Shown: piece after piece, positions 16,194-50,839 of the stretch
Position numbering within the stretch: the first letter of the stretch is position 1
Layout: each line of letters begins with the position of its first letter
NCBI GenBank assembly: GCA_016840465.1
Contig: JAEOSH010000002.1
Span: forward strand, 36,782-100,781
Reading direction: 5' to 3'
DNA: 64,000 bases
Source: Candidatus Baldrarchaeum yapensis
Lineage (GTDB): Archaea > Asgardarchaeota > Baldrarchaeia > Baldrarchaeales > Baldrarchaeaceae
Notes under the pieces: generated by a model
Told to the model about the DNA's origin: nothing
The model's input: only the letters and a program-made list of their open reading frames with translations
Database searches by the model: none
Position numbers and translations under genes: made by a program

Positions 16194-17990
16194 TTATTTC
16201 CGAGAACTCCTTTTTATTTTCATTATCTCGTTGAGTAACTCCAGTTCTTCGGATGATAATTCCTCAGAGAACTTTAATTTTAACGTTCTGATGTGTGGCT
16301 CCGGCACGTCGACATAAATTATATCTCCTTCTTTTATGTGCCTACCGACTATGGCTTCCCTTATAGATATTGCAACTTCCATACCCGCGGTTGCTTCCCG
16401 AAGACTCTGACCTGCCTGTTGAATTTGCATTATTTGACCTATATATTTTCCACTTGATGTCATAAGGGGATACCTAGGTCGTATTCTTCCGACGAGTACC
16501 TTAACCCCCACGATTGCCGGCTTACTTCTCCTAAACACATAACCCGGCAGTATCATTATTTTTGCCGGCATTATTATCTTTTCTAATGTCAATTTCTTTT
16601 CTTCTTCTCGCTTCTTCGTAACCCAATTATCGTAATCCTCAAGTAGTTTGTAGATTATGTTGCTCCAAAATATTGGAATGTCATATTTTTTAGCTTCCTC
16701 TTCGGCGTCCGGCAAAATTTTTACGTTAAAAGCTAGTATTGCTGCTCGATATGGATCCTTTTCCATGACAACTACCGCTTCCATGACATCACGCTTTGAT
16801 ACATCGCCAATACCTGCAAGTCTTATTGGAACATCATGTCTCCGTAAGTAATTTACTAGCGCTTCTAGAGATCCCAAGGTATCCGCTTTTAAAACAACAC
16901 CAACCTTATCTGTCGAAATTATGATCTTCTTGACTTCCTTCTCAATCTCGTCAACTACGGATTGTAACTCTGATTCATCCCAGACCGCACGCATTGGAGA
17001 GCCAGCAACAGCGCCTTCGAGATTTGGAGCGACAAGTTTTACTCCTGCGGCTGCCACCACTTCATCTACCGGTGTGAACTTCTCACGAGGATCCCTTATT
17101 TCATCTAAAGGCTTTGGTAAAAGTATAGCACGAAGTTTTGTGACAATAGGTCCCTCTATTCCTCCTATTACGATGATATCATCCTTTCTCAGTACTCCAT
17201 CGTAGATTATCGCATTCACTGTTAAACCGAGTCCGAGTTCTTCCTTTACCTCGAGAATAACTCCTTTTGCCGGCCCTTCCTTAAATTCGAGTTGTTTTTT
17301 CATGTAGCGCTGAGTCAGACCGGCGAGTACAAGTAAAAGTTCAGGTATCCCCTCCCCCGTTTTTGCACTTGTTGGGACGATGGCAACTGTTTTTGAGAAA
17401 TCAGTAACTCTATCAAACCTTTCAGCGCTGAACCCGACGGCACTCAAGGACCCGACTATTTGGTATATTTTTTCGTCTAAGTACCTCCTGACGGCTGGAT
17501 CTTGCAGTTTTATTGATTCTGTAAAGTATTGTGTGGGTCCGGGTCTCCACCCGGGGATCCTGTCTATTTTGTTTGCGGCAACTAAAAATGGAACTCGCCT
17601 TTCCTTCAAGATGTCTATGCATTCCCATGTTTGAGCTTGGAATCCCTCCATTATATCAACTACTAGTATTGCGAAGTCTGCAGCGGCTCCGCCCCTAACT
17701 CTAAGGTTGTAAAATGCCTCATGCCCTGGAGTATCTATGACTAGGATTCCTGGGATTGTCAACTTCACTTTATACATTTCCATGAGTTTGCCACAAATTT
17801 TCTCAATTACGGGGGATGGAAAGAAGGATGCACCAATGTGCTGGGTCTAGCATCAGGCCGTGGAAAACGGCCTGATTATGCCCCCAGCCTCTCTTTGTTG
17901 GACGGCCGTCCCACGGATTTTATCAAGCAATGAGGTCTTTCCATGATCTATATGTCCCAAAACAACGCATATGGGCTGCCTTAGACGCAT
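16194..17990 (-). CDS. infB: Translation initiation factor aIF5B (IF-2) with an internal 30-nt non-coding insert; coding parts 17877-17990 and 16194-17846
   Basis: Exon 1 (38 codons) [38 protein letters not shown] ends at 17877. A 30-nt insert (17847-17876) with in-frame TGA and TAG follows. The frame then resumes [10 protein letters not shown]...DTPGHEAF (G2/G3 motifs). GGTGAGGTGATC sits upstream of ATG 17988-17990. The ORF track shows only the downstream 529 aa. Confidence 0.8.
17847..17876 (-). other. Candidate bulge-helix-bulge (BHB) intron inside infB (30 nt)
   Basis: Sense RNA: GCUGGG-GGCA-[UAA]-UCAGGCCG-uuuucca-CGGCCUGA-UGCU-[AGA]-CCCAGC. Outer helix 6 bp, central helix 4 bp (GGCA:UGCU with one G-U), two 3-nt bulges, inner hairpin 8 bp. 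Cutting after the 2nd nt of each bulge removes exactly 30 nt and restores ...GGI|TQHIGA. Confidence 0.6.
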
Positions 17991-18081
17991 AAGATCACCT
18001 CACCAATTAGCGTTAAGAAAACAAAGAGTACTTAGGCAAGCAAAAATATTTTTGGCTTAGGAAAAGAAGAAGAAATGACGT

Positions 18082-27003: not shown

Positions 27004-28360
27004 AATAGTACCAGGGCTCATGCAATTTTATGGTCTCTTTTCTCTTCTTTTCCAGGCCATACCTTTGGTAAGGCTTTGTTAAATGTCTATGTGCACGAGG
27101 CGGTGGTATGTAGAGTCCATCTTTCAGATCTCGCTTTATTTCTTCTACTTCTTTTTCTGCATCGACCAATTTTAAGCCACACTTTTTACAGCGATAACCA
27201 CCTGATCTGCCCAATGACTTCATACGTTTTCCGCACTTTGGACATTTGGGGTTTCTAGAAATAAACTTTCTTGCCAACTTTACGATTTCAATTTTTTCAA
27301 GGTTTACGGTAAATTTCGAGCCATTCAGAGGTCTAACACCCCCATATGCTATGATTTCATCGCCCGGTTCGAGTTTTTGAATTATTTTGCGAAAATCTCC
27401 AGTGGGCTCATATGCTGCAGCATCTATGGCGCCCGTCTCATCCCTTAGTCTCACTATTACGTGCCCACCCTCAATTACCTCGGGTTTAGAATCAACTATA
27501 GCTTTGATTTTACAGGGCAGATACGGCCTTAGCTCGGATATTTTCCTATAAACTATAAGATGATCATCGGTTCCCTGGTTTGTCCGAAAAATCACCCAAC
27601 ATGCGATTGGCTCGCCCGTCTTGATGTACTTTAGCGCTTCGATTAATACCCTAGGATTCTCCCCCCTAATGCCAAAGAGCACCGGATCTGGGCCATGTGG
27701 TGTAATGAGAATTCTACCGGTTTCATAATCGACATTATTAAAAGTGAGCGGAAAGGTTTCCCTATCCATCAGCATGACTGATTGCGGATCCACTCTCCTA
27801 GGAGTTCCCCAATTCTCTCTTTTCCTATACGCAAGCAACTCGTACGTGTAATCGCCATCAAGAGTTTCGCCGACTGCTGCAAGAGCTCCTATAATTCCTC
27901 TGCGTTCCTTATAGCCTATTATCTCAACATTCAACATTTTTGCGATTCTCTCTGCCTCCTCGATTTCGACAATATCTCTTATTACCTTTTTTGCAAAACA
28001 CTTTAGCGGTGTAGGAATCTTTCCTCTTAAGAACGCTATACCGGGATTTGTCTTTTCATCCTCGATCATAAACCATTTTTCTACTTCCTGTATGACTGTA
28101 CGTTTTATTTCTTCGATAAGATTCTCGTTTACGAGAACTCTTATTGCTACCGCGCCGTTTCCCCTCGTCTTGTATGGTACATTTGGGTTTAACCTGATAA
28201 GGTTGGGATAGTCAATGAATTCAACTTCGAACTCCTTTACAAGTTTTCTGATAATTTGTGCTGCTATGTAAGTCGTACATCCACCCCTTACCGAGTCTGT
28301 ATCATCTATTCCTATGTGAAACTCTATTTTGGGGCCAAAATGCGAGATTTTGCTCACCAC
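26993..28360 (-). CDS. tiaS: tRNA(Ile2) 2-agmatinylcytidine synthetase
   Basis: N-terminal FHIGIDDTDSVRGGCTTY kinase-like signature; C-terminal zinc ribbon CPKCGKRMKS...YRCKKCG. Confidence 0.75.
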   Translation of the reverse strand: MVSKISHFGPKIEFHIGIDDTDSVRGGCTTYIAAQIIRKLVKEFEVEFIDYPNLIRLNPNVPYKTRGNGAVAIRVLVNENLIEEIKRTVIQEVEKWFMIEDEKTNPGIAFLRGKIPTPLKCFAKKVIRDIVEIEEAERIAKMLNVEIIGYKERRGIIGALAAVGETLDGDYTYELLAYRKRENWGTPRRVDPQSVMLMDRETFPLTFNNVDYETGRILITPHGPDPVLFGIRGENPRVLIEALKYIKTGEPIACWVIFRTNQGTDDHLIVYRKISELRPYLPCKIKAIVDSKPEVIEGGHVIVRLRDETGAIDAAAYEPTGDFRKIIQKLEPGDEIIAYGGVRPLNGSKFTVNLEKIEIVKLARKFISRNPKCPKCGKRMKSLGRSGGYRCKKCGLKLVDAEKEVEEIKRDLKDGLYIPPPRAHRHLTKPYQRYGLEKKRKETIKLHEPWYYFSE

Positions 28361-29629: not shown

Positions 29630-32080
29630 CTAAATTTTCAGATATACTGTGTATTCTTTGCCGCCCACTTGAAAGCTTTCCGAGATCATTCCCTCAGTGG
29701 TTGGTGGTGTTCCGAAATTTATACTTCTTGCCTTATGCATTTCCTTTAAGTCCTTTTCGAAGGGCTTGAGGTCTTTCGGCAACCATAACTCGCTTATTGA
29801 GGCTCTCAATGATATCTTCTTTGATTTTTTCAGTTTCCAGACACAACTGTTTGCTTTCAGAAGTATCGGCGTTACATTTGTTAAATCGGTCTCCCACTCC
29901 TTTGTCGGCTCAGGAAATCTCTCCAAATGAATGCTCTTGTTAGGAGAGTAGAGAGTGCGGTATATCTTTTCCGTAATGAAGGGAGTTATCGGAGCGAGCA
30001 ATTTCAATATCGTCTTTAGAGCTGTGTGAAGTGCATACCATGCGCCCCTTTGCTCTTCCTCCGAGAATGTTCCGTCTCTATTATAGGCACGTGATTTTAC
30101 GAGTTCTATGTAATGTGATGCAAATGTCTCCCATACGAATGAACGTATGACGTTTGCAGGTATTTGGAAGTTAAGGGCTTCATACCCCTTCTTTGCCTCT
30201 TTTATCAATTTGTTCAGTTCTCCGAGGATCCATCTATCGGCGGGGAGTAATGTGAATCTCTCCTCAGGTATAGGGAACGCTGAGATGAAACGGGCAATGT
30301 TCCAGAGTTTTACCAAGAATTTAAACGCTCCTTGGAGTCTTTGTTCCGAGAATCTAATATCAGATCCGAGACCAGCCTCCATACTAGACCATAGCCTCAT
30401 AGCGTCCGCGCCATATTTCTCTATCAGGGGACGCGGCCATATTATGTTGCCTTTTGACTTAGACATTTTTTCGCCTTTTTCGTCGAGTACCATGCCGCTT
30501 ATCCATACTTCTCTAAAGGCGGGCGCCTTGAGTAATAGATATGACCTAAGAATTGTGTAATACAGCCATGTCCGGACAATATCCTTTCCCTGAGGGCGTA
30601 AAGAGCACGGAAATGTTCTTTCAAAGAATTTCTGATCTCTCAGATACCTTAGTATTTGTAAATTGCTGATTCCTGAATCAAACCACGTGTCAAATGTTCT
30701 CTCTTCTCCACGGAATCCTTTTTTCGACCCACAGTGGGGACACTTATCAAAGGGCGGGGGTTCCCTCCATGGCTGATAATACTTTCCCGGTGGAGGCACT
30801 ACTGCTTTTCCGCATTCCAAGCAGTACCATAATGGTATCTCCGTTCCGTAGTACCTACGTCTACTGATGGGCCAATCGGTTGTCACAGCATTTATCCAAT
30901 TTAGTAATAATTGTTTGCTCTCGGGAGGGAAGAATTTGATCTCATCTACGATCTTCTTTAATTCGGGGAGAAATTCTACCTGCTTGAGATAGTATTCCGG
31001 CATTATTATGAACTCTATTGGATCCTTGGATCGCCAACATATCGGAATTCTATGGATTATTTTTTCTTTCTTTACTACGAGCCCCAGTTTCTCGAGATCC
31101 TTTATTATCTCTTCTCGAGCGCGTTTTACGGGCAGGCCCTTGTACTTGCCCGCAACTTCCGTCATTGTGCCATCGGGGCTTATTGCCGTTATAGGTTTCA
31201 ACTTCAGCTCCCGATAAAGGCGTACATCTGTGTAGTCACCGAATGAGCATACCATCATGGCACCTGTTCCAAATTTAGGGTTTGCCTCCTTATGTGGTAT
31301 TATCGGAACTTCTAAGTTGTATATCGGCACTATTGCAGTTTTCCCATGGAGTTGCTTGTATCTATCGTCATCGGGATGTACTATCACACATCCACAGGCG
31401 CAAAGCAACTCGGGGCGTGTCGTAGCAATAATTAAGTCCTGCCCTGTCTCTTTCACCTTGAATTTTATATAGACGAGAAGGGTTTCTTCTTCAGCGTACT
31501 CGACCTCGGCGTCTGCAATTGTTGTCCGGCAGGTAGGACACCAGTTGTTGGGCCTGACGGCTTCGTATATCAGTCCTTTTTTCCAGTATTCTATAAATGT
31601 CGCTTGTGTTATTCTTCTATATTCAGGACTGTCAGTTCTATAAATGTCCTTATCGTCGAAGGAGTTGCAACTAAGGCCCATTCTTCTGGCGATCCAAATT
31701 ATGTCTTTTTCATACTCGTCCAGTAATTTCTTACATAGTTCTATGAACTTTTCGCGGGGCACCTCGAAAAACCTAACATTAAACATTTTCTCTGCTTCTA
31801 CCTCTATAGGTAAACCGTTTCTGTCAATCCCAAATGGAAATAAGACTTCATATCCTTGCATGCGCCTAAATCTTGCGATCATGTCTATTTGACCGTAATG
31901 TATTGCACCTCCGAGGTGCCATTTTCCACTTGCATAGGGTGGCGGTGTGTCTATGGAGTATATAGGTTTGTTTGTGTTCTCATTGAACTTGTATGTTTGT
32001 TCTTTTTCCCAAAGTTCTAGTATCTCCTCCTCTATCGAGGGATCCCACCTAGTCTCTCCTAATTTTGGCTTAAACTCCAT
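29630..32080 (-). CDS. valS: Valyl-tRNA synthetase (class I aaRS)
   Basis: HIGH-region variant PPYASGKWHLGGAIHY, KMSKSKGN, 816 aa, editing-domain-sized insertion. The Val/Ile/Leu subfamily call rests on size and motif resemblance. Confidence 0.7.
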   Translation of the reverse strand: MEFKPKLGETRWDPSIEEEILELWEKEQTYKFNENTNKPIYSIDTPPPYASGKWHLGGAIHYGQIDMIARFRRMQGYEVLFPFGIDRNGLPIEVEAEKMFNVRFFEVPREKFIELCKKLLDEYEKDIIWIARRMGLSCNSFDDKDIYRTDSPEYRRITQATFIEYWKKGLIYEAVRPNNWCPTCRTTIADAEVEYAEEETLLVYIKFKVKETGQDLIIATTRPELLCACGCVIVHPDDDRYKQLHGKTAIVPIYNLEVPIIPHKEANPKFGTGAMMVCSFGDYTDVRLYRELKLKPITAISPDGTMTEVAGKYKGLPVKRAREEIIKDLEKLGLVVKKEKIIHRIPICWRSKDPIEFIIMPEYYLKQVEFLPELKKIVDEIKFFPPESKQLLLNWINAVTTDWPISRRRYYGTEIPLWYCLECGKAVVPPPGKYYQPWREPPPFDKCPHCGSKKGFRGEERTFDTWFDSGISNLQILRYLRDQKFFERTFPCSLRPQGKDIVRTWLYYTILRSYLLLKAPAFREVWISGMVLDEKGEKMSKSKGNIIWPRPLIEKYGADAMRLWSSMEAGLGSDIRFSEQRLQGAFKFLVKLWNIARFISAFPIPEERFTLLPADRWILGELNKLIKEAKKGYEALNFQIPANVIRSFVWETFASHYIELVKSRAYNRDGTFSEEEQRGAWYALHTALKTILKLLAPITPFITEKIYRTLYSPNKSIHLERFPEPTKEWETDLTNVTPILLKANSCVWKLKKSKKISLRASISELWLPKDLKPFEKDLKEMHKARSINFGTPPTTEGMISESFQVGGKEYTVYLKI

Positions 32081-32342: not shown

Positions 32343-33065
32343 ATGAAGAGGGTAGTGATAAAGATAGGCGGTTCTATAATCTTCCGGTCAGATGGAACCT
32401 TGAATGATGATCTGATGAGGAAGTACGCGATCGTAATTAGAGATTTATTAAAGGACGATATCTTGCCCTCTATTGTGACCGGTGGTGGCATTATGAGTAA
32501 AAAATACGTAAAATGGGCTAAAAACTTCGGCGCTAACGATGCATTATGTGATATGCTTGGAATAACGCTATCTCGCGCAAACGCCTTACTACTGATATCT
32601 GCTCTTGGAGATATTGCATACCCAACCGTTCCAACATCCTTAGAAGAAGCATTGAAGGCTATAGCATCGGGGAAGGTCGTAGTAATGGGAGGACTTCAAC
32701 CAGGGCAATCAACAAACGCCGTAGCAGCACTTTTAGCGGAAAGTATTGGTGCTGAAATGCTGATAATCGCTACAGACGTAGATGGAATTTACAGTGCTCC
32801 GCCTGAGATGTCCGATGCAAAATTGCTTAAAAGGATTTCGCCAGGCGGGTTGCTGTCGTTAATACTCAAGCATTCGAGTTTTGAAGCGGGAAAGTACCAG
32901 TTGTTTGACCCACTTGCTGTTCTAATTATACAGAGAGCCGGAATAGTTGTGAGAGTAATCAACGGAATTGATCCCGAGAATGTAGTCAGAGTTCTTAGGG
33001 GCGAGGACATTGGTACGTTAGTACTGCCTGAAGACAAGCGATATGGTGCGGGGGGTGGGATTTGA
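32343..33065 (+). CDS. pyrH: Uridylate kinase (archaeal type)
   Basis: VVIKIGGS...IVTGGG amino-acid-kinase fold, about 230 aa. The last 22 nt overlap tRNA-Leu on the opposite strand. Confidence 0.75.
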   Translation: MKRVVIKIGGSIIFRSDGTLNDDLMRKYAIVIRDLLKDDILPSIVTGGGIMSKKYVKWAKNFGANDALCDMLGITLSRANALLLISALGDIAYPTVPTSLEEALKAIASGKVVVMGGLQPGQSTNAVAALLAESIGAEMLIIATDVDGIYSAPPEMSDAKLLKRISPGGLLSLILKHSSFEAGKYQLFDPLAVLIIQRAGIVVRVINGIDPENVVRVLRGEDIGTLVLPEDKRYGAGGGI

Positions 33066-33159
33066 ACCCACGTAGGCCTACGCCAGCGGATCTTGAGTCT
33101 CGACCGGGGGTCACGTATAGCCCCGACCGCCGCCTTTGACCGGGCTCGGCCACCCCCGC
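33044..33159 (-). tRNA. tRNA-Leu (anticodon CAA) with 28-nt intron at non-canonical position 30/31
   Basis: Mature arm GCGGA-CUCAAGA-UCCGC only forms after removing UCGGGGCUAUACGUGACCCCCGGUCGAG (plus-strand 33099-33126). BHB: CGGC-[GGU]-CGGGG...CCCCG-GUCG-[AGA]. Type II variable arm, discriminator A, CCA encoded. Confidence 0.75.
33099..33126 (-). other. tRNA-Leu intron (28 nt, BHB, position 30/31)
   Basis: See tRNA-Leu. Central helix CGGC:GUCG (one G-U), 3-nt bulges GGU and AGA, inner hairpin CGGGG:CCCCG. Confidence 0.65.
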
Positions 33160-46094: not shown

Positions 46095-46811
46095 GTGCTC
46101 ACAATGCTGATGTTCATAGTTGCAGAAGCAGCACTCGAGGTGATTCCTCCAATCTTGAGACATTACAAGGCCATCCAGAGGCTTGCAAGCAGAAGAGGAA
46201 AGCGTCCTGATGAAATGCTATTAGACTCTTCACTTCATCATTACTATATGAGGGCGTATCTAGGGGATTTTCACAAACGCGGTCGCCCTGATATTGTACA
46301 CATGATTCTCCTATCAGTCATGGGAACCCCACTCAATAAGGAAGGATTGCTCTCCGTCTACATTCACACATATAACGATTATGTGCTTTACATTAACCCC
46401 GAGACAAGGCTTCCTAAGAACTACAATCGATTTGTTGGCCTTATGGAACAATTATTTAAATTAGGAAAAGTGCCCCCAGAAGGAGAGGCATTAATCAGAC
46501 TTGAGAAGAAAACATTAACTCAGTTGCTTGAGGAATTGAACCCTGATAAGGTGATACTGTTTTCGGAAGGTGGAGAATTGGTTGACCTTTTCGAGTTCTT
46601 TAAGAGGTTTTCTCCGGATGAAAATATAGCAGTCATGATTGGTGGTTTTCCGCACGGCAGTTTTAGGGAGGAAACGGAAAAACTTGCTGATGTCAAAGTA
46701 TCCATAGATCCTGAACCGTTGGAGGCGTGGGTAGTTGCATCTCGGATAATTTACGCATATGAATACACTATCGGCGTGACGAGAAATCGTTTATTGAAAA
46801 AGTTAGGGTGA
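46095..46811 (+). CDS. nep1: Ribosomal RNA small subunit methyltransferase Nep1 (SPOUT)
   Basis: RPDIVHMILLSVMGTPLNKEG motif. Confidence 0.8.
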   Translation: MLTMLMFIVAEAALEVIPPILRHYKAIQRLASRRGKRPDEMLLDSSLHHYYMRAYLGDFHKRGRPDIVHMILLSVMGTPLNKEGLLSVYIHTYNDYVLYINPETRLPKNYNRFVGLMEQLFKLGKVPPEGEALIRLEKKTLTQLLEELNPDKVILFSEGGELVDLFEFFKRFSPDENIAVMIGGFPHGSFREETEKLADVKVSIDPEPLEAWVVASRIIYAYEYTIGVTRNRLLKKLG

Positions 46812-48036: not shown

Positions 48037-49014
48037 ATGGAAATTAGAGTCTTGGTAACTGACCCTATACACAAAGATGGCATCGAACTTCTGAAAAAAA
48101 GTGGTTTTTCTGTAGATGAAAAGCCCGACATTAGCCATGATGAACTCGTGAAAATAGTAGGAGATTATGAAGTACTTATTGTGAGAGGACGTACTAAAGT
48201 CACAAGAGACGTGATTTCGGTTGCTAAAAAGTTAAAGGTCATTGGGAGAGCTGGTGTCGGTTTGGATAATATAGACTTAGAGGCCGCACGAGAGAGAGGT
48301 ATTACTGTATTCAATGCGCCGGAGGCCGCGTCAGTTGCCGTTGCAGAACTCGTATTTGGGCTTCTAATTGCAGTAATGCGCGGAATATGTTTAGGAAATG
48401 CGGCACTTAAAAGAGGAGAATGGATTAAAGCAAAACTTATGGGACATGAGTTAAGAGGAAAAGTTTTAGGAATAATAGGCTTAGGCAGAATAGGAACCGA
48501 GGTTGCAAAGCGCGCTAAGGCATTTGAAATGTACGTAAAGGCGTATGATGTTAGGGAAGAGGCCCGGCAATTGGCAGAAAGTTTAGGAGTCGAGTTTGTC
48601 GGGACTTCTAGGGAGGCGTTTGAGGAGTTGCTTAGAACTTCTGACATTATAACGATTCATGTCCCACTGACCAAGGACACTTATCATTTAATAGGCAAAA
48701 AAGAACTATCACTCATGAAACCCAATGCTATCATCATAAATACCTCACGAGGTGGGGTTATCGATGAAAATGCCCTTTATGAGTTCCTCAAAGAGAGAAA
48801 AATATACGCCGCAGGACTCGATGTTTTCGAACAAGAACCCCCACGAGATCTGCGATTAGTCGGATTACCCAATGTGGTGGCTACACCACATATAGGGGCA
48901 TCAACAGAGGAGGCCCAAAGAGCAGCATCTATAACTATTGCTGAGAGAATAATTCAGTACTTTGGAGAGAAAGGATGGCGCCGGGGGCGGGATTCGAACC
49001 CGCGCGGCCCGTAA
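48037..49014 (+). CDS. D-isomer-specific 2-hydroxyacid dehydrogenase family (phosphoglycerate dehydrogenase-like)
   Basis: GIIGLGRIGTEVAKRA NAD motif and catalytic R/E/H pattern. The last 39 nt overlap tRNA-Ser antisense. Confidence 0.7.
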   Translation: MEIRVLVTDPIHKDGIELLKKSGFSVDEKPDISHDELVKIVGDYEVLIVRGRTKVTRDVISVAKKLKVIGRAGVGLDNIDLEAARERGITVFNAPEAASVAVAELVFGLLIAVMRGICLGNAALKRGEWIKAKLMGHELRGKVLGIIGLGRIGTEVAKRAKAFEMYVKAYDVREEARQLAESLGVEFVGTSREAFEELLRTSDIITIHVPLTKDTYHLIGKKELSLMKPNAIIINTSRGGVIDENALYEFLKERKIYAAGLDVFEQEPPRDLRLVGLPNVVATPHIGASTEEAQRAASITIAERIIQYFGEKGWRRGRDSNPRGP

Positions 49015-49026
49015 GGGCCACGGGCT

Positions 49027-49039
49027 TTATGGTCGAAAT
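49027..49039 (-). other. tRNA-Ser intron 2 (13 nt, relaxed BHB/BHL at canonical 37/38)
   Basis: Bulges AGA and AAA flank a 3-bp helix UGG:CCA; no inner stem, so processing would need a relaxed-specificity endonuclease. Confidence 0.4.
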
Positions 49040-49047
49040 CTCCAGGC

Positions 49048-49066
49048 TTGCGCCCGCCGTAGCGGT
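49048..49066 (-). other. tRNA-Ser intron 1 (19 nt, strict BHB core)
   Basis: Helix GCGC:GCGC flanked by bulges GGA and AAG; inner stem CCGC-uacg-GCGG. Confidence 0.55.
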
Positions 49067-49200
49067 CCGCGCCTTGGCCAGCTAGGCTACCCCGGCGCGA
49101 TAATACCTATATGGGAGTTATGGTGGGGAAATGATTACATCCCGATACGGTACTTCGCTCTACTAATTTTACTTTTGGTTTTGACAGAAACTTATATTTT

Positions 49201-49833
49201 TTATGACATTGGTTTGCTTAATGGTGCTTCGCAAAGTCTTGATAAAAACACGAAATATCCTTTCTTTTTCGCTAAAATTTCAAGATTGCCGAATGTTTCT
49301 TCCATGAACTTCATTATTCTTTCTGCGCCTTTATTTCTTTTTGCGACGATTTGTAGAGTTCCTCCATTTTTCAAATGTATTGGTGCGAGTTTTATTAATT
49401 TGATAACAGTATCGAGTCCCTTATGGATCGGAGGGTTAGAAACTATAGCATTGAACTTCATGCCTCTAACTGGCTCATAAAGATCTCCCTGAATCACTTT
49501 TACATTTCTCACACCGTTTCTCTTAGCGTTCTCACGCGCTAACATTACTGCCCTCCTGTTAATATCCGTCATTATAACATGCAACCTTTCATTTATCTTT
49601 GCGGCCACTATCCCTATAACACCATAACCGCATCCAAGATCTAGGAAAGTTCCCTCATTCGGAATTTCCATGGTTTCGACAAGAAGTCTTGTCCCTAGGT
49701 CTACTTTCTTGTAGGAAAAAACTCCAGACGCTGTTAAAAACTCGAATATATGCCCTCTAAGGACAGTCTTTACGAGAAAAAGTTCAAATTCTGTAATCTG
49801 CTCTTCTGAATAATAATGCGGCATTCTAACCAC
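49201..49833 (-). CDS. Class I SAM-dependent methyltransferase (RsmC/METTL5-like methyltransferase small domain)
   Basis: LDLGCGYGVIG SAM motif and NPPIH (N-methyl-amine MTase motif IV). Confidence 0.65.
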   Translation of the reverse strand: MVRMPHYYSEEQITEFELFLVKTVLRGHIFEFLTASGVFSYKKVDLGTRLLVETMEIPNEGTFLDLGCGYGVIGIVAAKINERLHVIMTDINRRAVMLARENAKRNGVRNVKVIQGDLYEPVRGMKFNAIVSNPPIHKGLDTVIKLIKLAPIHLKNGGTLQIVAKRNKGAERIMKFMEETFGNLEILAKKKGYFVFLSRLCEAPLSKPMS

Positions 49834-50839
49834 TCTTCTTGAATTCCTTCCAACTAGGATACGTGCCTCTTTTCATAATCACTCTATCGATGGTCGCTGC
49901 TATGCCCTTACTCTTCTTTAGTATTTCCTCCGTCGACATAACTGCTCTGCCCAATGCTATAACTTCATCTTTTAATGTAAAAATCGCAACAAGATCCCCC
50001 GGCTTTATTCCTTCGTGTAATTTAACAATCCCGGGTACGGTAAGATGGGCACCATGACACAAGGCATCTACTGCCGAGTCACGCACCCAAATATGCGGCA
50101 GATGATCTAATGCGCGCTCGACGGGCTGTATGCATTTTCTCAGAAACTGTTCGTCGCCATCTTCCTTCCAGAAGTGATAAGCATCCACAAGATCATGAAG
50201 TGTAACCAGTGTTTCATCCTCTTTAAACGGTCCAGTTCTTGTCCTCCTTAGCTCTCTCATGTGAGCGCCGCTACCTAGTGCCTCGCCGATATCAAAAATA
50301 AGCTTTCTAATGTAAGTTCCAGCTTGACATCCAACCCTCATCAGAACGTTTCTTCCTTCTATCTCCAGAATTTTTATATAGTAAATCTTTCTCGTTCTAA
50401 GGCGGCGTTTCACAGACGATCTTACCGGGGGACGTTGATAAATTTCGCCCACAAATTCACTAACGACTTCCCTGATTTTGTCTTCTGGCACATCCCTGTG
50501 TAAGTACATGACTGTTACGTACTCTTTTCCTGCAGGTAATAGTGTTTGTATGACCTTTGTTGCATTTTCTAGCGCTATAGGAAGCACTCCAGTGACGCCG
50601 GGATCCAAAGTTCCTCCATGACCCGCTTTTTTAACATTTAATATCCGTTTTATCCAAGCAACTACCTCATGGCTTGTGGGTCCCGCTGGTTTGTCCAAAT
50701 TTATTACTCCATTTTCTATTAGACTCTCTATTGGACGTTCGTCTGGGTAACAACCGTATCTGGGATCTGTTTCTGCCTCGCTTTTGACAATGATCTTTCT
50801 TTTCACATCGGATGGAAGCTTACACTCCATTAATGCCAC
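49826..50839 (-). CDS. cbf5: H/ACA RNP pseudouridine synthase Cbf5 (TruB family + PUA)
   Basis: INLDKPAGPTSHEVVAWIKRIL...GHGGTLDPGVTGVLPIAL. The gene is uninterrupted here. Confidence 0.85.
   Translation of the reverse strand: MALMECKLPSDVKRKIIVKSEAETDPRYGCYPDERPIESLIENGVINLDKPAGPTSHEVVAWIKRILNVKKAGHGGTLDPGVTGVLPIALENATKVIQTLLPAGKEYVTVMYLHRDVPEDKIREVVSEFVGEIYQRPPVRSSVKRRLRTRKIYYIKILEIEGRNVLMRVGCQAGTYIRKLIFDIGEALGSGAHMRELRRTRTGPFKEDETLVTLHDLVDAYHFWKEDGDEQFLRKCIQPVERALDHLPHIWVRDSAVDALCHGAHLTVPGIVKLHEGIKPGDLVAIFTLKDEVIALGRAVMSTEEILKKSKGIAATIDRVIMKRGTYPSWKEFKKSG

Follow-up and report, generated by a model that had tools for sequence, protein, structure and literature searches.

The infB gene of Candidatus Baldrarchaeum yapensis, an archaeon of the Asgardarchaeota (Baldrarchaeia), encodes the translation GTPase aIF5B and is interrupted within its coding region by 30 nt that contain stop codons. 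The gene lies in a stretch of 64,000 nt (assembly GCA_016840465.1, contig JAEOSH010000002.1, positions 36,782 to 100,781 of the forward strand) that was analysed as a whole and is called the window in the following. With a probability of roughly 0.88, the 30 nt are an archaeal bulge-helix-bulge (BHB) intron, which would be cleaved by the splicing endonuclease EndA and ligated by RtcB. The anatomy of the gene, the covarying conservation of five intron types at the same codon boundary, the selection on both exons and on the exon bases of the motif, and the intron-bearing tRNA genes of the same window were observed directly, and it is from these that we infer cleavage and ligation.

The insert in infB and its fold

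The reading frame of infB starts with an ATG at 17990-17988, and the unspliced mRNA encodes only a 45-aa peptide. The first codons of exon 2 (ACC CAG CAC, encoding TQH) are in the same frame as exon 1. Removal of the 30 nt, between 17877 and 17876 at the 5' splice site and between 17847 and 17846 at the 3' splice site, results in ...EAGGI/TQHIGA... (a slash marks the splice junction here and below) and in a translated aIF5B of 588 aa. The junction expected in the spliced RNA is GGCAUA/ACCCAGCAC. The spliced product scores 875 bits against the NCBIfam model PRK04004 (cut-off 468) and aligns to Aeropyrum pernix aIF5B (5fg3) without a gap over the junction EAGGITQHIGAS (E 2e-220). The original prediction, which had been made by reading the window, had placed the ATG at 17988-17990 behind a Shine-Dalgarno sequence, had followed the frame via the G1 motif GHIDHGKT to ...REAGGI, had noticed the TGA and TAG in 17847-17876, and had let the frame resume at TQHIGA for 550 codons. 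Sequence and translation agree with it in all these points, the stop being at 16194. One copy of infB was found, which is situated within the conserved NDK-infB-S6e-aIF2gamma synteny, and the gene order around it (L7Ae-S28e-NDK-infB-S6e-aIF2gamma) is conserved.

Table 1. Features of the infB locus, the intron-bearing tRNA genes of the window, and inserts found at the same codon boundary in other lineages. Positions refer to the window.
Feature	Position	Strand	Remarks
infB (aIF5B) gene	16194-17990	minus	broken after codon 38 by 30 nt
Shine-Dalgarno-like GGTGAGGTGATC	17993..18004	minus	5' of the infB start codon; presumed function
infB exon 1	17877..17990	minus	38 codons, from ATG via the G1 motif GHIDHGKT to ...REAGGI
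Predicted BHB intron, 30 nt, AUCAGGCCGUUUUCCACGGCCUGAUGCUAG	17847..17876 (sense 17876 to 17847)	minus	in-frame UGA and UAG
infB exon 2	16194..17846	minus	550 codons and stop; begins at the G2/switch-I motif TQHIGA (TQHIGASFF...)
Complete hBHBh' motif	17840..17888	minus	minimum free energy structure
Outer helix, 6 bp, GCUGGG:CCCAGC	17883-17888 with 17840-17845	minus	both strands exonic
Central helix, 4 bp, GGCA:UGCU	17879-17882 (exon) with 17849-17852 (intron)	minus	one G.U
Bulge 1, UA/A	17876-17878	minus	
Bulge 2, AG/A	17846-17848	minus	
Inner helix, 9 bp	17867-17875 with 17853-17861	minus	
Hairpin loop of the infB intron	17862-17866	minus	
tRNA-Leu(CAA) with 28-nt BHB intron (33099-33126)	33047..33159	minus	non-canonical position in the anticodon stem
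tRNA-Ser(GGA), two apparent introns	48979..49096	minus	BHB parse and manual reading
L021 intron, 20 nt, GUUCAUGAACAGAAUCCCAU			boundary GGI/TQH
L018 intron, 20 nt, CUCCCCCUGAGGGAUCCCAA			boundary GGM/TQH
L022/L023 intron, 19 nt, CUCCCGUGCGGGAUCUCAG			boundary GGM/TQH

The minimum free energy (MFE) structure of 17830-17900 on the minus strand, calculated with ViennaRNA, is the hBHBh' motif (-32.2 kcal/mol, z = -4.3), and none of 200 shuffled sequences equalled it. The outer helix, the central helix and the bulges UAA and AGA are those that had been proposed before, while the inner hairpin helix comprises nine base pairs and not eight. A BHB is defined as a 4-bp helix with two 3-nt bulges, and in pre-tRNAs the central helix pairs the first two anticodon bases and the splice is at 37/38 (PMC4090602). 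Because this definition puts the splice at 37/38, the cut is placed after the second nucleotide of each bulge. In infB such cuts (17877/17876 and 17847/17846) remove exactly 30 nt, and the earlier claim that the canonical cut restores GGI/TQH thus holds for both the MFE fold and the frame.

Shuffled 64-kb windows contain about 0.9 BHBs of like quality on both strands (outer plus inner helix at least 15 bp, intron at most 150 nt), and therefore the fold alone is not rare. Similarly, a scan of the whole window for contiguous-helix BHBs with at least 11 bp in the outer plus inner helices gave 22 matches against 22.3 in shuffles. The chance that the BHB cut sites match the sole excision that restores the frame is in the order of 1e-7. 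The other top matches of the scan (27096-27237 and 31948-31973 on the plus strand, 46417-46456 on the minus strand) are antisense to coding genes and were taken as chance matches. A second ORF split by a BHB was not found in the window and the related loci, when the excision was required to join two ORFs with a minimum of 60 codons each. The weak candidates with 3+3 bp from this search would join neighbouring genes and were not taken as mRNA introns.

Cleavage at BHB bulges by EndA followed by ligation by RtcB is an established pathway in archaea. In the infB pre-mRNA the codons for A-G-G-I (GCU GGG GGC AUA) and T-Q-H (ACC CAG C) would pair partly among themselves and partly with the 3' end of the insert, by which the 6-bp outer helix and the 4-bp central helix with its two 3-nt bulges would be formed, and the middle of the insert would fold into the 9-bp hairpin. 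EndA, the splicing endonuclease of tRNAs and rRNAs, would recognise this shape and cut after the second nucleotide of each bulge. The exons would be joined by the RNA ligase RtcB, and the intron would probably be circularised. The mature mRNA, reading ...EAGGITQHIGA..., would encode the full 588-aa GTPase.

It could be suspected that the insert is a sequencing or assembly artefact at the palindrome, as the data are metagenomic and hairpins can misassemble locally. However, the identical 30 nt were read in the independent assemblies L006 and L007, and 12 contigs of the ENA/NCBI, JGI, and Logan assemblies carry the truncated infB product (P0001, 527 aa). The assemblies with the identical insert or the truncated call include those of ENA/NCBI at 63x coverage, Logan SRR6823440, and JGI, which come from separate pipelines. 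In addition, at least four other lineages, on dozens of contigs, have diverged inserts at this site. The artefact that the original prediction had listed among its possible refutations has a negligible probability in view of the same 30 nt in independent ENA/NCBI and Logan assemblies.

Introns at the same codon boundary in other lineages

The sole close homologue cluster (P0002, 69% amino acid identity) is also N-terminally truncated and belongs to a second, sister lineage of the Baldrarchaeia. There, 33 nt with an in-frame UAG are inserted at the same GGI/TQH boundary. The sister insert has an unrelated hairpin (UCUAGUCAGAC/GUCUGGCUAGA) together with the same outer helix, the central helix GGCA:UGCC, and two 3-nt bulges. 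In exon 1 the two lineages share 33 of 38 residues. A pattern scan of metagenomes revealed three more variants, which differ in the central helix (UGCC to UGUC), the inner helix (U.G to U-A), the loop, and the third nucleotide of bulge 1. The covariation sample is small (5+3 sequences, about five independent types); when the two Baldrarchaeia types are aligned, each of the 102 pair cells holds a standard pair, with four compensatory and three wobble-type pairs, compared to 20-36% pairing in slid controls whose partner was shifted by 1-3 columns. Thus, the structure is kept while the sequence diverges. A search of genome contigs with the spliced protein gave no close relative, the only match being L001 with 50% identity.

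The 38-aa exon 1 was also searched against 1.84 billion representatives, which resulted in many short N-terminal fragments, and the DNA of three of these shows introns (L021, L018, and L022/L023; Table 1). All are canonical BHBs. Their central helix is GGGA:UCCC or GGGA:UCUC, compared to GGCA:UGCY in the Baldrarchaeia types, so that the synonymous third base of the exon codon co-varies with the intron. The outer helix of L022, with GUUGGG:CCCAAC instead of GCUGGG:CCCAGC, shows a compensatory pair of exon changes. The canonical cut yields Met (GGMTQ) in the lineages of the GGM type, which agrees with 37 intron-less proteins of the Bathyarchaeia type that read E[AV]GGMTQ. In the MFE structures of L018 (395-584) and L022 (3085-3165) the exons pair with each other beyond the BHB as well, in an additional 7-bp helix such as GCUCCGA...UUGGAGC between the codons for Q-L-R-E and those for I-G-A, and therefore the structured region exceeds the canonical motif in these two.

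The spliced gene of L022 encodes a complete aIF5B of 592 aa. The clade of L022 comprises 13 clusters with 87 sequences of 76-98% identity, all of which are N-terminally truncated. Nine of its representatives have ten out-of-frame codons in front of TQHIGAS, exactly as expected from 11 nt of exon 1 and a 19-nt intron. The next relatives (65% identity) are full length, and the nearest named relatives are Bathyarchaeia with 61-63% identity. Two proteins of the clade (P0349 and P0350, 564 aa each) have an out-of-frame leader that ends in ...SK, and not in ...SQ, before TQHIGAS.

In general, most aIF5B relatives (up to 62% identity, from Bathyarchaeia, Freyarchaeota, and Asgardarchaeia) have no insert and read ...GGITQHIGA... 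or ...GGMTQHIGA.... The alignment of orthologues that had been suggested as a check therefore has a twofold outcome: the insert is absent in most relatives, and the closest relatives keep the BHB via compensatory changes in a different insert. BHB introns in archaeal mRNAs had been called very rare. This is true for the literature. It is not true in nature, where whole clades of uncultured archaea have the infB intron, hidden by truncated gene calls. Further lineages with an intron may be marked by the short N-terminal aIF5B/eIF5B fragments P0169, P0171, P0176, P0192, P0226, and P0286, whose sequences diverge directly after EAGG(I/M). P0286 is eukaryote-like in appearance.

Across the five intron types, each of the eight variants has two 3-nt bulges on opposite strands with a spacing of 4 bp. 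The strict hBHBh' form is present throughout, with an outer helix of 6 bp and an inner helix of 9 bp in the window and of 4-6 bp and 3-11 bp, respectively, in the relatives. Of the symmetric cut positions, only the one behind the second bulge nucleotide results in GGITQ or GGMTQ as appropriate for the lineage in each of the five types. Reasoning from the parse of the eight variants, a shift of both cuts by one nucleotide in either direction would give a wrong residue in at least one lineage.

The comparison of insert lengths and boundaries also bears on the possibility that the insert stays in the mRNA and is either bypassed by the ribosome, as in gene 60 of phage T4, or translated by read-through of the stop codons. 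The insert resembles the gene 60 gap in its stable hairpin and in a stop that closely follows the last sense codon. However, programmed bypassing needs matching take-off and landing codons, and the take-off codon AUA or AUG is matched by none of the triplets before exon 2, which are UAG, CAA, CAU, CAA, and CAG in the five types. Read-through could not restore the frame in the case of the 19- and 20-nt inserts, whose lengths are not a multiple of three, and is thus excluded for these lineages; moreover, it would place 10-11 unconserved residues in switch I. Both mechanisms leave unexplained why the bulges are conserved at a distance of 4 bp and why exon and intron change in a compensatory way. 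Bypassing or read-through is therefore very unlikely compared to removal of the insert as a BHB intron.

A break at the same position was found in two marine thaumarchaeal contigs with the gene order L7Ae-S28e-NDK-infB (L019, 3001-3262; L020, 2825-3086), in which infB ends exactly after ...EAGGI. Downstream of the break there is AT-rich DNA with a DctM gene, which exactly matches a protein from an alphaproteobacterial metagenome-assembled genome, and the junction is present in four contigs. A split or trans-spliced infB (P0150) was considered, but chimeric assembly is more likely given this exact match. The junction is probably chimeric, although the breakpoint coincides with the intron boundary.

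Selection on splice-dependent codons and public annotation

Public gene calls for infB of the window comprise 527-529 aa of exon 2 only, starting at an internal Met. It could thus be possible that infB is a decaying pseudogene, or that only an N-terminally truncated aIF5B is made from this Met and the hairpin is incidental. The NCBI accessions of the window genome might point in the same direction: those of NDK, S6e, and aIF2gamma are consecutive (MHA1594705/06/07) and run from NDK to S6e without a gap at the slot of infB. As these accessions are consecutive, NCBI annotation apparently issued no infB protein record for this genome. On the other hand, a comparison of the window infB with that of L004 revealed saturated synonymous sites (pS 0.84-0.92) and low nonsynonymous divergence in exon 1 (pN 0.077 versus pS 0.87) and in the 21 codons that follow the intron up to the internal Met (pN 0.114). 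Both segments are useless unless the intron is removed, and yet they are under strong purifying selection, which contradicts pseudogenisation and truncation. The check for a pseudogene that had been proposed is thereby answered in the negative, with pN at 0.08-0.11 versus saturated pS at 0.87-0.92 in the splice-dependent codons.

Further observations argue against a truncated or decaying gene. The internal Met of the short calls is not conserved in relatives, being Leu in the sister Baldrarchaeia lineage, and a product starting there would have neither the P-loop nor the switch-I Thr. The one infB that is present is in conserved synteny, and the interruption, with its covariation, has been kept at one boundary in lineages of saturated synonymous divergence. 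Therefore, it is hard to imagine that the gene is dead or shortened, and we give this possibility a very small probability. The six exon codons that form the BHB (GCT GGG GGC ATA / ACC CAG) are identical in the window and L004, whereas 12 of the 14 flanking codons for the same residues differ. Intron-less genes use other codons at these positions, namely GCA GGG GGG ATT ACT CAG, GCT GGA GGT ATT ACG CAG, and GCT GGT GGT ATT ACA CAA.

The spliced genes of L004, L008, L011, and L022 are uninterrupted and encode about 590 aa. The deposits of the sister lineage at NCBI, JGI, and ENA are N-terminally truncated 'IF-2' proteins of 559, 533, 466, and 424 aa. A second intron in this lineage, which the cluster members of 466 and 424 aa seemed to indicate, was rejected, since no further interruption is present in the spliced genes and internal starts account for the short calls. 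Because infB is truncated or apparently unrecorded in every gene call seen, marker-gene sets, completeness estimates, and aIF5B phylogenies are affected. BHB-aware gene calling would mend these calls.

Host splicing, possible roles, and comparison with known introns

The window itself contains tRNA genes with BHB introns. The tRNA-Leu(CAA) gene matches the Rfam tRNA model with 41 bits and a 37-nt insertion. If its intron is removed according to the BHB rule, ARAGORN identifies a tRNA-Leu(caa) with a clean 5-bp stem; read manually, the central helix is CGGC:GUCG and the bulges are GG/U and AG/A. ARAGORN itself places the intron with a shift, by which a U.U remains in the stem, and the placement by the BHB rule was used instead. 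The tRNA-Leu(CAA) intron indicates that the host splices BHB introns. The second gene, a class II tRNA matching Rfam with 39 bits and a 47-nt insertion, was called 'tRNA-Pyl(cta)' by ARAGORN (48979-49096), but this intron placement violates the BHB rule and the gene is best read as tRNA-Ser(GGA). By manual reading, its first intron of 19 nt (49048-49066) is in the anticodon stem, has the central helix GCGC:GCGC, and fits the cut rule. The second of 13 nt (49027-49039) is at the canonical 37/38 position and has only three of the four central pairs, and is hence less certain. Folding of the isolated anticodon arms did not reproduce the BHBs of these tRNAs (z about 0). The cut rule, which the original prediction had stated, is in accordance with the definition in PMC4090602, the tRNA-Leu(CAA) intron, and all five infB intron types.

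Asgard archaea have an (alpha-beta)2 EndA with an L1 loop, a type that is linked to cbf5 pre-mRNA splicing and shared with the TACK archaea, and non-canonical and multiple tRNA introns accompany this EndA of broad specificity (PMC5829648). The cbf5 gene of the window (49826-50839, minus strand) is an uninterrupted ORF of 334 aa with DKCLD, TruB_N, and PUA domains, and had been correctly described as intact. Accordingly, the infB intron is not an orthologue of the cbf5 intron: the host gene is infB, and the two introns are alike in their working without being the same.

Some points weigh against a BHB intron that is removed by EndA and RtcB. The ribosome start is only 114 nt upstream of the intron, so that splicing must compete with translation, and the genes for EndA and RtcB are not within the 64-kb window. 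No full-length spliced protein of this lineage was found among 5.8 billion clustered proteins, including those from assemblies of public runs, and the other intron-bearing lineages have none in the protein collections either. A second, intact infB may be present elsewhere in the genome. Not all structures are perfect. The outer helix of L018 has one C.A mismatch, and the BHB of P0349 and P0350 may be relaxed, with a G.A at one central pair (an A where C is needed), as judged from the protein N-termini only. In L008 and L011 the central helix is open in the MFE structure, which gains one G.U in return. The BHB conformer lies 1.3 kcal/mol above this structure at 37 °C, and at 80 °C the two have the same energy.

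Concerning the function of the intron, we would guess that it is carried along as a tolerated passenger, and any role beyond its removal would be conjecture. Splicing competence would be kept by selection because infB is essential. A genuine BHB intron might also have been kept as a regulatory checkpoint that ties the output of aIF5B to the activity of EndA and RtcB, and thus to the capacity for tRNA and rRNA maturation, following a logic like that of HAC1/XBP1 splicing. In line with this, the intron is held at one site of an essential initiation factor across deep lineages, it is located early in the ORF so that the unspliced mRNA is useless, and EndA also processes rRNA precursors, while removal of the intron in the 5' untranslated region (UTR) of HVO_1309 affects expression (PMC7714728). 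However, such an intron is missing from most archaea, among them other Asgard lineages and the majority of Bathyarchaeia, the intron cores are not conserved between lineages, and the cbf5 intron, too, has no known function (PMC7714728). The essentiality of the gene already accounts for the conserved splicing competence, and we consider a checkpoint improbable.

Also unlikely is the wider proposal that the intron is either a conserved EndA/RtcB checkpoint on the synthesis of this subunit-joining factor, coupling initiation to tRNA and rRNA maturation in Asgard and other, Bathyarchaeia-like archaea, or a mobile mini-intron, spread for example by reverse splicing, or both. Repeated insertion would possibly have happened at a 'proto-splice site' provided by the self-complementary GCUGGG...CCCAGC codons of the GGITQ motif. 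A mobile mini-intron would explain why different phyla have unrelated cores at precisely the same boundary. The analogy to homing elements that the original prediction had drawn is not supported, as there is no endonuclease ORF and the introns have 19-33 nt. Group I and group II introns have a ribozyme core of hundreds of nucleotides and were rejected on the same length range; only tRNAs reach the Rfam threshold in the window, and a permissive Rfam scan of the intron region gave chance-level hairpin matches at E of at least 1 only. An intein was dismissed too, because the insert has stop codons or shifts the frame and comprises at most 11 codons.

The cbf5 pre-mRNA intron of Crenarchaeota (Watanabe 2002; Yoshinari 2006; Yokobori 2009, PMC2738675) is among the closest known systems, and its splicing has been shown by experiment. 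Like the cbf5 introns, which have 16-44 bp and are reported from the coding region (PMC2738675), the infB introns are short and without ORF, reside in the coding region of an essential and conserved gene related to RNA or translation, and have a BHB at the exon-intron boundaries. In both cases the distribution is patchy with gains and losses, and the hosts of the cbf5 intron have the hetero-oligomeric (alpha-beta)2 EndA that Asgard archaea carry as well. The genes are different, a pseudouridine synthase there and aIF5B here, as are the hosts, which are Sulfolobales and Desulfurococcales in the case of cbf5 and Baldrarchaeia, a Bathyarchaeia-related clade, and further lineages in the case of infB. 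In addition, the infB BHB has the strict hBHBh' form and is built by half from invariant codons of a GTPase motif, and its splicing is predicted while that of cbf5 is experimental. An EndA paper of 2025 still cites the cbf5 papers only, and no earlier report was found in the literature on aIF5B/infB, Asgard archaea, Baldrarchaeota/-ia, or Bathyarchaeota in combination with BHB or intron. As far as the full-text literature and the EndA literature of 2018-2025 show, infB is only the second protein-coding gene with a BHB intron in its coding region. Among archaeal mRNAs, BHB introns were found reported for cbf5, in the coding region, and for HVO_1309, in the 5' UTR, only.

With the BHB introns of archaeal tRNAs and rRNAs, such as those in tRNA-Leu and tRNA-Ser of the same genome, the infB intron shares the 4-bp helix, the two 3-nt bulges, and the cut after the second bulge nucleotide. 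In contrast, ribosomes can load onto the infB substrate, an mRNA, during its synthesis, and the exon halves of its motif are constrained by coding as well as by pairing. The intron of HVO_1309 in Haloferax volcanii, for which processing by the splicing endonuclease was confirmed both in vivo and in vitro (Schwarz 2020, PMC7714728), is likewise in an mRNA, but it is located in the untranslated leader and its removal rebuilds no reading frame. The splicing of HAC1 and XBP1 by IRE1 and tRNA ligase or RtcB resembles the proposed infB splicing in being independent of the spliceosome, in using a protein endonuclease, structured sites, and a tRNA-type ligase, and in changing the frame; it differs in the IRE1 endonuclease, the twin stem-loops in place of a BHB, and the regulation by stress.

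Asgard archaea are the closest known relatives of eukaryotes. An intron inside the switch-I motif of an essential translation GTPase in this group would bear on the origin of protein-only splicing of mRNAs, for which RtcB and XBP1/HAC1 may be compared. The introns of 19-33 nt at one boundary in several lineages provide a natural comparative series for the recognition of BHBs in mRNAs and for intron gain and loss. Moreover, the infB intron offers a testable case of splicing that competes with coupled translation.

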